From: a virus
Taxonomy: Duplodnaviria > Heunggongvirae > Uroviricota > Caudoviricetes
IMG/VR virus record: IMGVR_UViG_2622736468_000003
Direction: 5' to 3' (one strand)
DNA: 64,000 bases
The position numbers were made by a program, and so were the translations under genes. A model generated the notes under the pieces. That model saw only the letters and a program-made list of their open reading frames with translations. It did no database searches and was not told the DNA's origin. How positions within the stretch are numbered: the first letter of the stretch is position 1; every line of letters begins with the position of its first letter. This document shows positions 3,942 through 41,831 of the stretch, piece after piece.

Positions 3942-5479
3942 ATGAACGACATCTCTTCTGACGACATCTTCCTGCTGAAACAGCGCCTGGCCGAACAGGA
4001 AGCGCTGATCCACGCCCTGCAGGAAAAGCTGAGCAACCGGGAGCGCGAAATAGACCATCTGCAGGCGCAGCTGGATAAACTCCGCCGGATGAACTTCGGC
4101 AGTCGTTCCGAAAAAGTCTCCCGCCGTATCGCACAAATGGAAGCCGATCTGAACCGGCTTCAGAAAGAGAGCGATACGCTGACTGGTAGGGTGTATGACC
4201 CGGCAGTACAGCGTCCGTTGCGTCAGACCCGCACCCGTAAGCCGTTCCCTGAATCACTACCCCGTGACGAAAAGCGACTGTTGCCTGCGGCGCCGTGCTG
4301 CCCGAACTGCGGCGGTTCACTGAGTTATCTGGGCGAGGATACCGCCGAACAGCTGGAGTTGATGCGTAGCGCCTTCCGGGTTATCCGGACGGTACGGGAA
4401 AAACATGCCTGTACTCAGTGCGATGCCATCGTGCAGGCACCTGCACCTTCGCGGCCCATCGAGCGGGGTATCGCCGGACCGGGCTGCTGGCCCGCGTGCT
4501 GACCTCGAAGTATGCAGAGCACACCCCGCTGTATCGCCAGTCAGAAATATACGGCCGGCAAGGTGTGGAGCTGAGCCGTTCACTGCTGTCGGGCTGGGTG
4601 GATGCATGCTGCCGGCTGCTGTCTCCGCTGGAAGAGGCGCTTCATGGCTATGTGCTGACTGACGGTAAGCTCCATGTTGATGACACGCCTGTCCCGGTGC
4701 TGTTGCCAGGCAATAAGAAAACGAAGACCGGGCGGTTGTGGGCGTATGTTCGTGACGACCGTAACGCCGGGTCAACGCTGGCGCCGGCGGTGTGGTTCGC
4801 TTACAGCCCGGACAGAAAAGGCATCCATCCGCAGACCCATCTTGCGGGGTTCAGTGGTGTACTGCAGGCGGATGCATACGCCGGGTTCAACGAGCTGTAC
4901 CGGGATGGCCGGATAACGGAAGCCGCCTGTTGGGCTCACGCCCGCCGTAAAATCCACGATGTGCACGTTCGCACCCCGTCAGCCCTGACGGAGGAAGCGC
5001 TGAAACGGATCGGCGAACTGTACGCCATCGAGGCAGAGATAAGGGGAATGACGGCGGAACAGCGCCTTGCCGAACGTCAGTTGAAAACGAAACCGCTGCT
5101 GAAATCCCTGGAAAGCTGGCTGCGTGAAAAGATGAAAACCCTGTCGCGACACTCAGAACTGGCGAAAGCGTTCGCATACGCCCTGAACCAGTGGCCGGCG
5201 CTGACGTACTATGCAGATGATGGCTGGGCTGAGGCGGACAATAACATCGCTGAAAATGCGTTGCGGATGGTCAGTCTGGGCCGCAAAAACTACCTGTTCT
5301 TCGGTTCGGATCATGGAGGAGAGCGGGGAGCGCTGCTGTACAGCCTGATCGGGACGTGCAAACTGAACGGAGTGGAGCCAGAAAGCTACCTCCGCTATGT
5401 CCTTGACGTCATAGCCGACTGGCCGATAAACCGGGTCGGCGAACTGCTCCCCTGGCGCGTAGCACTGCCGACTGAATAA
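3942..5479 (+). pseudogene. IS66 transposase (TnpC) with a -1 frame disruption
   Basis: track splits it into 3942..4502 and 4418..5479; G-run of 3 at 4481..4483 where the intact copy 2 (26108..27646, 512 aa) has 4; may be a base-calling error. Confidence 0.7.
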
Positions 5480-5516
5480 CACATCCCCGTCAATACGGTT
5501 CTTGCTGCACGCTTAC

Positions 5517-6098
5517 GGATCGTCTTTCAGCGCCGTTTGTACTTTCGCAGCCAGGCCGTTGAAGCCATTTCTCATATCGGTGATACCGGCAACCAGCCAA
5601 ATTTTGGTCCCGGAAGGTAACGGGATCATCGCTTCAGTTCCTGTATCAGCAGAGTCAGGAGCTTTTCGCTGACATTGCCATTGAAGCGGAGCGTCCCGTG
5701 CCGGAACGTTACCTCACAGCTGATACTGAGGGTTTCCGGGTCCTCTGCGAGCGATTCTGGCTGTTCGGCAGCTGCATCGAGAGTCACAGGAAGTAGCTGG
5801 GGGCTCTCTGAAGAAGGTAATAGCAGCTTTCCCTCGCGCCATTGTTGTCGCCATTTGAACAACAGATTGGCGTTAATGCCATTTTCAAGAGCAAGTTTTG
5901 AGATGGATATCCCGGGTTCACAGGAGGCAGCAACGAGCTGCTGTTTAAATTCGGGAGGATAATTAGGGCAGCCTTTTCGCCTGCCGGGAGTCACATTTTT
6001 CTGCATATCTGATACTTTGGTTCCCACTGCTTATTTGGTGGACACCACTTTGTCTAATTCGTCAGATTCTGACCAGACGGTTCAGGCTGTACGCTTAC
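5517..6098 (-). mobile_element. inverted 582-bp IS66 left-end fragment (IRL + orf1 + first ~113 nt of orf2)
   Basis: reverse complement of IS66 positions 1..~582 abutting the IRR of copy 1; carries 2 SNPs relative to copies 1 and 2 (orf1 K to E). Confidence 0.8.
5626..6027 (-). CDS. IS66 Orf1, variant copy inside the inverted fragment
   Basis: 133-aa ORF identical to 3147..3548 except one substitution. Confidence 0.7.
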   Translation of the reverse strand: MGTKVSDMQKNVTPGRRKGCPNYPPEFKQQLVAASCEPGISISKLALENGINANLLFKWRQQWREGKLLLPSSESPQLLPVTLDAAAEQPESLAEDPETLSISCEVTFRHGTLRFNGNVSEKLLTLLIQELKR

Positions 6099-6106
6099 GG
6101 TTAGTG
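6099..6106. repeat. 8-bp target-site duplication GGTTAGTG (right copy)
   Basis: matches 3068..3075. Confidence 0.85.
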
Positions 6107-6252
6107 TTTTCTTTTTTTTCTATTTCTTTAATCACCAAGTCATGAGCTAGGTGTCTGTCATGAGCCAGATATACTTTTGAAAAACAACCCTGTTCTTCTA
6201 GATCACTAATCCATTCGAATTCTACATCAGCTCTTTTGTATGGAGTTAGCAT
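6099..6252 (-). pseudogene. eukaryotic-like Ser/Thr protein kinase, N-terminal 51 codons
   Basis: MLTPYKRADVEFEWISDLEEQGCFSKVYLAHDRHLAHDLVIKEI...; glycine-rich loop and VIK lysine; ATG overlaps the stop of the upstream ORF (ATGCTAA). Confidence 0.75.
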
Positions 6253-39576: not shown

Positions 39577-39651
39577 ATGGTAAATGAATAATTTTAAAAA
39601 CTTCACGTTCTACATACCGGAGACGCCGGATATATAGGATATTGTTTTAAG

Positions 39652-39864
39652 TTGCCAGAGAAATTTTTCCGGACGGATGCTGATAATAATGATGTGCCAA
39701 TGACGGCAGCATCATTGATGGCACTGAGTGAAGCGACAGAGCTAGCGATGTTTGCGAAGGGAGTGGAGATTAATACACGGCTGTTGCAGATGAAAGCCGA
39801 GGTTGAGGCGCTGACAGACCTGAAGGCGATCCGCAGTTATGTTGTCGGATGGCCTGCTGGCTGA
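39652..39864 (+). CDS. hypothetical small protein
   Basis: track ORF, 70 aa; followed by an A-run / GGGAC...GTCCC hairpin. Confidence 0.3.
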   Translation: MPEKFFRTDADNNDVPMTAASLMALSEATELAMFAKGVEINTRLLQMKAEVEALTDLKAIRSYVVGWPAG

Positions 39865-40206
39865 ATAAAAAAAAACGGGACCACGGCCAGTCCCGATGTA
39901 ATGAGTTTTAGGGTATTAGTTTGTTATCATAGTTAGCGTGCTAAGTATGCCATATCAGGCTGATTAGTGAAGTGATGTTGTTCGCATTTTTGCACGGCGG
40001 AGAATATTCAGATTTTTGGAAATCCATATTTTTCCCGTGCGCGATTACATGCTTCATTTACGATGCCATTTTCGCCGGACATTGCGAATTCCCTGCATGT
40101 GGACGGGCGGTAAGAGCGACTCCTGTACGGGTTGACGTCGTGAAATTGTGCCGGGATTAATTATTCCACCTCGTCTGCCATTCAAATTTTCGGATACCAG
40201 ATAACC

Positions 40207-41831
40207 ATGCCTTATATCGATATAACCACTATGCGCGGGATGATGCCAGGCGTTATTGCATCTATGCTTCCTGATAATGCTGCTGTACTGGCAGAAAACT
40301 GTCATTTTCGCTATGGCGTGATCACGCCTGAACACGAGATGTCAGAGGTTGAGAAAACATTCACAATTAAGCCAAAAACAATTTTTCATTACCGTGACGA
40401 TTTTTGGTTTGCATGGCCGGATGTGGTGGATGTGATCCGCAGTCCGATCGCTCAGGACCCCCACGGGCGTATTTACTACACTGACGGGCGTTTTCCTAAA
40501 GTGACGGATGCGACCATTGCCACAAAAGGGGACGGGAATCACCCGACATCATCGTATCGTCTTGGGATCCCCGCGCCGACGACAGCTCCTGTCTGTACTG
40601 TTCAGCAGGGCGGTGATGTTTCTGACGATAACCCGAATGATGATGAAACCCGGTTTTATACGGAAACCTTTGTCTCAGATTATGGTGAAGAAGGTCCGCC
40701 AGGTCCGGCGTCTCTGGAGGTAACACTCCGTACTCCGGGAACTGCGGTACAACTGACGCTGGCTCCGGTGCCATTGCAGAATGCCAGTATTAAACGTCGC
40801 CGGATTTATCGCTCTGCATCAGGTGGAGGGGAGGCGGATTTTTTACTTGTGGCTGAACTGGATGCATCCGTGCTCAGTTACACGGACAAAATACCGGCGA
40901 AAAACCTTGGGCCTTCCCTGGCGACATGGGATTACCTGCCGCCGCCAGAGAATATGACAGGCCTTTGCCTGATGGCTAACGGTATTGCCGCCGGGTTTGC
41001 CGGTAATGAAGTGATGTTTTCGGAAGCGTATCTGCCGTATGCATGGCCGGAAGTGAATCGTCACACGACGGCAGAAGATATTGTAGCTATCTGTCCGCTG
41101 GGAACGTCACTGGTGGTGGCGACAAAGGGGAGCCTTATTTGTTCAGTGGGGTATCACCGTCCACAATTTCTGGTTCCAAAATCCCTTCCATGCAGGCATG
41201 CCTGAGCCGAAGAAGTATGGTGGCGATGGAGGGATTCGTGCTGTATGCAGGAACAAATGGCCTGGTATCGGTTGATGCAGGCGGCAGTACAGCCGTGGTA
41301 ACGGAAAAAATCATTTCACCAGAACAGTGGCAGAGTCAGTTTAATCCGTCGTCCATTGTGGCTTACTCATGGCGTGGTGAGTACATTGCCTGTTACACGA
41401 AACCTGATGGTAAGCAGGATGTGTTTGTCTTCAACCCGGTGAACATGGATATCCGCTATCTCAGTACACCGTTTGACTGCGCATGGGTTGATCTCGCAAA
41501 AGATATGATGCGCGTGGTGACAGGAGACAAAATGTCAGTGCTTGCCGGGGGCTCTCTGCCGTCCACGATAAGGTGGCATTCAAAAATTTTTTCATTGCCT
41601 GAAAGAACCTCTTTTTCCTGTATCAGGGTGAAATCTCCAGCACCTGAGCGGGTGGGGATCACCGTTATGGCTGATGATGTTCCTGTTATTCATTTTGCGC
41701 CGGGTACGTTTAAGGGAAGTGTGGTGAGACTTCCGGCAGCAACCGGGCAAAACTGGCAGGTGATGGTATCCGGATTTGGGCAGGTGGAACGAATAACCCT
41801 GAGTACATCGATGTCGGAGTTACCGATATGA
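40207..41831 (+). pseudogene. tail-associated protein with one -1 frame disruption
   Basis: track ORFs 40207..41205 and 41043..41831 are continuous if the G4 run at 41127..41130 is read as G5. Confidence 0.5.

Follow-up and report, generated by a model that had tools for sequence, protein, structure and literature searches.

The six frame disruptions in the window (the whole 64,000-nt stretch of DNA analysed here) are, with a probability of about 0.9, consensus errors in the deposited CP014197.1 chromosome. Each is a single-base deficit in a run of G or C that shifts the reading frame by -1; all six of the deficits proposed in an earlier note, made from the sequence alone, were present. They are a technical signature and not biology, and they require no new mechanism. 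PacBio RS II continuous long reads polished with Quiver alone would leave residual indels in G/C runs, and where a base is lost inside a gene, the codons downstream would be shifted by -1 and annotation would call a pseudogene. From the comparison of two assemblies, we infer that the shorter alleles are errors rather than mutations in the sequenced stock. The real strain most likely has intact adaptor, tail-fibre and 541-aa tail genes.

One-base deficits and the proteins they interrupt

Insertion of one base per site recovered ORFs of 512, 216, 698 and 541 aa (Table 1). The claim that sensible protein continues after each shift was borne out, as the intact proteins map exactly onto the window across the frame changes. 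In tnpC of IS66 copy 1, residues 1-181 are read in frame 0 (3942-4484) and residues 181-512 in frame 2 (4481-5476), and with one G added the product is identical to the TnpC of copy 2. The ORF pair 36239..36619 / 36553..36888, which had been listed only as a possible sixth case, does have a -1 relation and represents one adaptor, with residues 1-113 at 36239-36577 and residues 114-216 one frame back at 36577-36885. The tail fibre is broken at 37760, 38476 and 38561; these three -1 shifts total -3, and the gene therefore regains its original frame. In the 541-aa tail gene, residues 1-308 lie at 40207-41130 and residues 307-541 one frame back at 41124-41828. The run coordinates of the earlier note stood except for its third, a tail-fibre run placed at 38474-38477, which a 2-nt slip had displaced from 38476-38479.

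Table 1. Positions in the window of the G/C-run deficits and of the genes and insertion element that contain them
Feature	Position	Strand	Remarks
IS66 copy-1 junctions	3076 and 6098		
tnpC of IS66 copy 1	3942..5479	+	Split into 186-aa and 353-aa ORFs
G3 run, IS66 copy-1 tnpC	4481..4483	+	G4 in copy 2 and 10 other copies
Candidate seventh deficit (absent from the earlier note)	11848..11851	+	CCCC; CCGCC in nearest allele
Head-tail adaptor gene (SU10_adaptor / DUF6682)	36239..36888	+	Repaired product of 216 aa equals that of GCA_901482365.1
C3 run, adaptor	36576..36578	+	C4 in GCA_901482365.1 and 24 other loci
Collagen-like tail fibre gene	36885..38978	+	Repaired product of 698 aa; four segments, in frames 0, 2, 1 and 0 in the window
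G5 run, tail fibre	37760..37764	+	G6 in GCA_901482365.1
G4 run, tail fibre	38476..38479	+	G5 in GCA_901482365.1; GGGGT or GGGGC in other strains
C4 run, tail fibre	38561..38564	+	C5 in GCA_901482365.1 and 20 other loci
541-aa tail gene	40207..41831	+	Split into 332-aa and 262-aa ORFs; repaired product equals that of GCA_901482365.1
G4 run, 541-aa tail gene	41127..41130	+	G5 in GCA_901482365.1 and 35 other loci

At each site, the shorter length was unique to the window among the 17-40 homologous loci compared, and every other genome examined carried either one base more (N+1) or a frame-preserving substitution. At the 41127 site, 18 IMG/VR contigs had G5 and none had G4. The G5 at the 38476 site is visible in the same-strain assembly only, not in more distant relatives. 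An exact look-up of the truncated ORFs of the three prophage genes found them on record nowhere, a result of small weight, given that no product is attached to annotated pseudogenes.

Two assemblies of the same strain

CP014197.1, which a published paper names as Escherichia coli MRE600, was 100.000% identical to positions 1-19961 and 23522-44736 of the window (41.2 kb compared). The MRE600 genome paper describes an IS-riddled, Shigella-like strain, sequenced on the PacBio RS II with P5-C3 chemistry on one SMRT cell and assembled with HGAP 2.0 and Quiver at 184x; it describes no Illumina or other short-read data, and CP014197.1 is thus a long-read-only sequence without short-read polishing. 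The CP014197 record was not found in the RefSeq complete-genome set searched, which is compatible with quality filtering without proving it.

GCA_901482365.1 is evidently an independent assembly of the same strain, and its near-identity to the window and the IS sites common to both suggest an origin in the NCTC 8164 deposit of MRE600, a strain also catalogued as ATCC 29417. Compared with positions 23522-64000, it had one additional base at 36576, 37760, 38476, 38561 and 41127 and, these five sites aside, no indels and one substitution. None of the prophage lesions therefore recurs in it (5/5 sites N+1), and its adaptor, tail-fibre and tail genes are uninterrupted at 216, 698 and 541 aa, respectively. 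The 40.5 kb compared contained 186 G/C runs of at least 4 nt, which by our arithmetic make up about 2% of the bases yet carry all five differences; because of this, the location of the differences in such runs is not due to chance. Over-calling by the second assembly was rejected as an explanation, since the N+1 length matches every other genome. The base at 37080 is unique to GCA_901482365.1, so this assembly is itself not error-free. NCBI nr lists its proteins under 'Streptococcus pneumoniae'. No products of this assembly are on record for the exact 360-aa (8879-9961) and 256-aa (10734-11504) ORFs. The counterpart of positions 1-23500 is expected near 2.50 Mb of its sequence CABEEG010000004.1. 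We also sought an Illumina-derived MRE600 contig through the 422-aa tail-tip protein and found none; the protein also occurs in over 1,000 blocks from other strains.

Errors of this kind have been described for the assembly method. A Quiver-polished PacBio assembly at 262x retained 205 residual indels, 'nearly all' in G/C homopolymers (PMC4832174), and homopolymers are a known weakness of Quiver, with frameshifts at G runs (PMC4853030). MRE600 resembles other Quiver-only PacBio RS II (CLR) assemblies in its single-base G/C-run deletions and in the false frameshifts and pseudogenes that independent sequence mends. However, its affected runs are short (true length 4-7) compared with the 9-G run of the cited Quiver example, its error density in the sampled loci (~1.4 per 10 kb) is high for 184x and its errors are over-dispersed.

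Under-calls beyond the prophage genes

CP014197 and the second assembly were compared over 80.7 kb, comprising positions 23522-64000 of the window and two unrelated orthologous pairs of 20.1 kb. The two additional pairs showed no mismatches and four and two one-base gaps, respectively, in each case a base missing from a G/C run in CP014197. The pooled sample thus held 11 gaps and a single substitution, and at each of the 11 a G/C run had one base fewer in CP014197; no run was longer in CP014197 anywhere in the 80.7 kb. The under-calls increased with the true length of the G/C run, from 0/30,424 at 1-3 nt to 3/267 at 4, 4/74 at 5, 3/7 at 6 and 1/2 at 7 nt (~45% at 6-7). Among A/T runs, none of the 318 of at least 5 nt was affected, and none of the 27 of at least 7 nt was changed. 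The differences are therefore one-directional, G/C-specific and increasingly frequent with run length, and they lack the substitutions, two-way indels and A/T-run changes of neutral decay. The PacBio/Quiver-only source, the N+1 lengths in the second assembly and this one-way, G/C-only spectrum support the suggestion in the earlier note of a systematic under-call in an uncorrected long-read consensus.

All 11 sites lie in accessory DNA (prophage and copper island), and the five prophage sites span 4.55 kb. We rejected G/C-run density as an explanation of this clustering, as the sites are tighter than expected from run density (P ~0.001 unweighted), even when runs are weighted by length-specific rates (P ~0.002-0.003), and some local factor may lie behind it, candidates being a dip in coverage, strand bias or methylation context. 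CCGG-containing C-run/G-run junctions, for which the MRE600 genome paper reports a possible m5C motif, were weakly enriched among the error sites (5/11, odds ratio 4.4, P = 0.024); this preference is a hint and does not explain the errors.

The 11 differences in 80.7 kb, a non-random sample of prophage and IS-adjacent loci, suggest ~660 G/C-run under-calls over the 4.83 Mb chromosome (Poisson range ~330-1,180). This has some practical weight, as CP014197 is the MRE600 reference for the ribosome and tRNA community. Many of its pseudogene calls would be false, and gene-content comparisons built on it, for instance those of 'Shigella-like gene loss', would be inflated.

Alternative explanations

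Alternatively, the shorter runs could be real -1 slippage mutations that arose in the Weill Cornell MRE600 stock after it had separated from the culture that gave rise to the second assembly, and that were kept because the prophage was already dead from IS insertions and no longer under selection. Slippage in mononucleotide runs is the chief natural origin of small indels, and the prophage is defective in any case: its small-terminase gene has been lost and replaced by IS66 and its esterase gene is split by an IS629-like element, so frameshifts would be tolerated. The IS insertions themselves are, as had been claimed, unaffected by the homopolymer caveat wherever they can be compared; the two assemblies agree throughout IS66 copy 2 and its flanks, and an 8-bp target duplication accompanies the copy-1 unit, whose flanks lie in the stk gene. 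The clustering beyond run density and the restriction of all 11 differences to accessory DNA would also suit real mutations, and genuine pseudogenisation in IS-rich E. coli and Shigella has the same setting as in MRE600, an IS-riddled, Shigella-like strain with frameshifts in the phage genes of a dead prophage. Nevertheless, genuine decay would recur in the second sequence, alongside substitutions, insertions and changes in A/T runs. MRE600 showed nothing of the kind; the one substitution found beside the 11 indels is attributable to the other assembly. Mismatch-repair defects affect A/T runs as well and produce many transitions, and we know of no natural mutator with a spectrum of G/C-run deletions in which all of 11 events are losses and some 45% of G/C runs of at least 6 nt are shortened while long A/T runs are spared. 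The same pattern at loci megabases apart indicates that this was not a local event, and the assembly method is known for leaving exactly such errors. Real mutation in the stock is thus very improbable, and there is slighter reason still to favour a real burst of G/C-run -1 frameshifts, for example by an error-prone polymerase in break repair, that would leave clusters such as the 4.55-kb tail-module group.

A functional role for the frameshifts, as programmed -1 ribosomal frameshifting, transcriptional slippage or phase-variable switching of tail genes, has next to nothing to recommend it, even though the sites are mononucleotide runs and programmed frameshifts occur in phage tail genes and some IS families. 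The -1 relation of adjacent ORFs in a tail module recalls programmed frameshifting of the lambda G/GT type, but no two-ORF arrangement is conserved here; in 17-40 other genomes, as in the second assembly, the homologues are single uninterrupted ORFs (216, 635-698 and 541 aa). The runs are merely 3-5 nt in the window and the variation is one-way across 11 sites, whereas phase variation involves long tracts and two-way changes; the tracts of 4-7 nt were invariant in length in all other genomes. Three shifts in one gene that total -3 correspond to no decoding design known to us. Greater weight, although it remains unlikely, is due to a mixed origin, in which the five prophage sites are errors and IS66 copy 1 has truly been inactivated by mutation to G3; the CCCC at 11848 may likewise be genuine. 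Both of these sites lie outside positions 23522-64000, the part of the window spanned by the second-assembly comparison. The deficit at 11848 frameshifts the last ~20 codons of a DUF977 gene, where the CP014197 annotation calls no gene, and it matches the error signature imperfectly, as the nearest allele is not a homopolymer. Two other contigs, including one from an unrelated assembly, have a recorded product that matches the 186-aa truncated TnpC exactly, and the G3 allele occurs in two RefSeq records; as these lie outside this assembly, either a true G3 variant of IS66 exists or the same error would have to recur. Those two are, however, the only G3 records among 4600 E. coli records carrying the tnpC segment, and the G4 noted earlier in copy 2 is the length in every one of the ten other copies of the IS66 unit across the two assemblies. 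The measured rates give ~0.18 expected under-calls per IS66 copy, and the CP014197 assembly has at least five copies (four chromosomal and one on a plasmid), so that under the error model one copy would be expected to be affected, and tnpC of copy 1 is probably intact in the real strain.

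Single-base deficits in the prophage genes and IS66 copy 1

When we mapped intact proteins back on the window, they matched exactly, dropping one frame back after each site. In comparison with the closest intact prophages of complete E. coli genomes, one base is missing from the window at 36576, 37760, approximately 38476-38480, 38561 and 41127, and IS66 copy 1 equals copy 2, the second IS66 of the window, less one G (G3 versus G4). Adding one base per site restores full ORFs. The frame disruptions are one-base deficits in G/C runs, as the earlier note had proposed, and its tentative sixth case, the ORF pair 36239..36619 / 36553..36888 (adaptor), is a true deficit of this type too. 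Its list needs a single correction, since it placed the middle tail fibre run at 38474-38477. That site is also a G-run deficit, being G5 in the second assembly of the strain, although more distant strains carry GGGGT or GGGGC.

Sites and features in the window; frames are those occupied by the intact protein, and ORF lengths in the rows that list frames are with one base added per site
Feature	Coordinates	Run	Frames	Product or context
IS66 unit (copy 1)	3076-6098			Within stk kinase gene
Truncated TnpC	3942-4502			186 aa
TnpC of copy 1	4481-4483	G3	0 to 2	512 aa
360-aa product	8879-9961			
DUF1627 product	10734-11504			256 aa
DUF977 gene deficit	11848-11851	CCCC		
IS629-like element	20832-22141			1,310 bp, ORFs 108 aa and 296 aa; in phage SASA-family esterase gene
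IS66 copy 2	26071-28512			Inverted relative to copy 1; in place of small-terminase gene
Adaptor	36576-36578	C3	2 to 1	216 aa
Tail fibre	37760-37764, 38476-38479, 38561-38564	G5, G4, C4	0 to 2 to 1 to 0	698 aa
Collagen-like units of fibre	38260-38530			
Tail gene	41127-41130	G4	1 to 0	541 aa

A seventh one-base deficit, absent from that list, lies in the DUF977 gene, where the closest allele reads CCGCC and other strains have a different sequence patch. It shifts the frame over the last ~20 codons, and no gene is called there in CP014197. This deficit does not fit the homopolymer rule cleanly, because the reference allele has no homopolymer at that point.

Source assembly and second assembly of the strain

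The window is 100.000% identical to CP014197.1 over 1-19961 and 23522-44736, frameshifts included, and its 2783-aa protein is carried by two assemblies, CP014197.1 and GCA_901482365.1. One paper names CP014197 as the genome of E. coli MRE600. The MRE600 genome paper, in which the strain is equated with NCTC 8164 and ATCC 29417, describes a PacBio library of 20 kb, sequenced with P5-C3 chemistry on one SMRT cell, then HGAP 2.0 and Quiver polishing at 184x, with short reads nowhere mentioned. Given this identity and this account, the uncorrected long-read consensus suspected earlier is a documented fact. In Quiver-polished PacBio assemblies, leftover indels were reported to be 'nearly all' located in homopolymers of G or C (PMC4832174), and homopolymers have been described as a recognised weakness of Quiver (PMC4853030); this published experience matches the pattern in the window.

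GCA_901482365.1 (contig CABEEG010000004.1) contains the same prophage and the same IS66 copy 2, and the IS insertions stand, untouched where checked by the homopolymer caveat, as the earlier note held. Compared with window 38512-64000, it shows only two differences, one additional base at each of 38561 and 41127, and no mismatches. Over 23522-44731, it has one additional base at all five prophage sites and one substitution, and the three genes are called there without interruption (216, 698 and 541 aa). The substitution, at 37080, is the only one between the assemblies and sits at an A-run/G-run boundary: the window reads AAAGGG, in agreement with 20 other genomes, and GCA_901482365.1 reads AAAAGG, unique among 25 loci. 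An error or SNP in GCA_901482365.1 itself probably accounts for it.

This second assembly has flaws of its own, and its labelling is odd. Its proteins are filed as 'Streptococcus pneumoniae' in NCBI nr (e.g. VTQ33337.1), its DNA is E. coli essentially identical to MRE600, and the record appears mislabelled. For CP014197 there are records of the exact 360-aa and DUF1627 products, and an exact-product look-up found none for GCA_901482365.1, which must therefore differ within these genes or have another arrangement there. At three A/T runs, the window has one base more than other strains do (A9 versus A8 at 39867, T7 versus T6 at 14800 and T8 versus T7 at 25528); those at 39867 and 25528 are common to both MRE600 assemblies and hence look like real polymorphisms.

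A probable length-dependent under-call in G/C runs

Two extra orthologous 20-kb loci elsewhere in the chromosome, which came up in both assemblies when an IS66 fragment of 38 aa was looked up, aligned without mismatch and with 4+2 one-base gaps. Each of the six gaps is a base missing from a G/C run of CP014197. In the pooled comparison (80.7 kb), CP014197 lacked one base in 0/30,424 of the G/C runs with a true length of 1-3, 3/267 at 4, 4/74 at 5, 3/7 at 6 and 1/2 at 7. None of the 318 A/T runs of at least 5 nt (27 of them at least 7 nt) was affected, and no difference in the reverse direction occurred in these 80.7 kb. The proposed systematic under-call recurs in two further loci, in one direction and in G/C runs only, and its pooled rate depends on run length. 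At each of the five prophage sites, CP014197 stands alone among 17-40 homologous loci in having the shorter allele, and where a homologous locus carries a substitution within the run, the run length is unchanged. At 41127, G5 was found in 18 IMG/VR contigs and G4 in none. The clustering of the five sites is tighter than expected from the length and density of runs (P ~0.002-0.003). Errors elsewhere bunch too, two of them lying 46 bp apart, and CCGG junctions, weakly preferred by error sites, may add to the clustering.

Real mutations separating two cultures of MRE600 would be a very improbable source of the deficits, since 11 deletions alongside no more than a single substitution in 80 kb are implausible, almost half of the G/C runs of at least 6 nt are affected while every long A/T run is spared, and the same pattern appears megabases apart. 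To our knowledge, no natural mutator has such a spectrum. Programmed frameshifting or phase variation has a negligible chance of being the explanation, because the homologues each consist of one ORF and the variation runs in one direction only. The observation of disrupted frames is confirmed, and its interpretation as an assembly artefact rather than biology is supported. The adaptor, the tail fibre and the 541-aa tail gene should no longer be classed as pseudogenes. CP014197 is a widely used reference genome, which makes this a practical warning.

The IS66 copies and the prophage

Copy 1 is not a plain IS66. The mobile unit (3,023 bp) comprises a 2,441-bp IS66 and 582 bp that duplicate the left end of this IS66 in inverted orientation, so that the unit has terminal inverted repeats of 582 bp. 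A target duplication of 8 bp (GGTTAGTG) borders the unit within the stk kinase gene. Both assemblies and plasmid CP014200 together yielded ten more copies of the unit, each 3,024 bp. The G3 in copy 1 is likely an assembly error, as all ten carry G4, G3 occurs in just 2 of the 4600 E. coli records that contain the segment, and the measured rates predict ~0.18 under-calls per IS66 copy. A real lesion is unlikely, yet keeps some weight because the identical truncated product is found on another, unrelated contig. The exact truncated TnpC, out-of-frame tail included, is on two contigs in NCBI/Logan/ENA, the longest (4,515,966 bp) belonging to neither MRE600 assembly, and RefSeq records NZ_CP028113.1 and NZ_CP024056.1 have the G3 allele. 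This recurrence may reflect recurrent error or recurrent mutation.

IS66 copy 2 has neither the 582-bp extension nor a target duplication, and replaces 728 bp that contain the small-terminase gene in related prophages, which suggests an IS-associated deletion. Its presence in place of this gene is alone enough to render the prophage defective. The prophage is short-tailed, Stx-phage-like and adjoins ynfF; it encodes an N4-gp56-type capsid, an SU10-type adaptor, a collagen-like tail fibre, the 541-aa tail gene product, a tail-tip protein and the 2783-aa LPD5 protein. The collagen-like units of the fibre are tandem, 63 nt each, and their number varies by strain, giving fibres of 635-698 aa.
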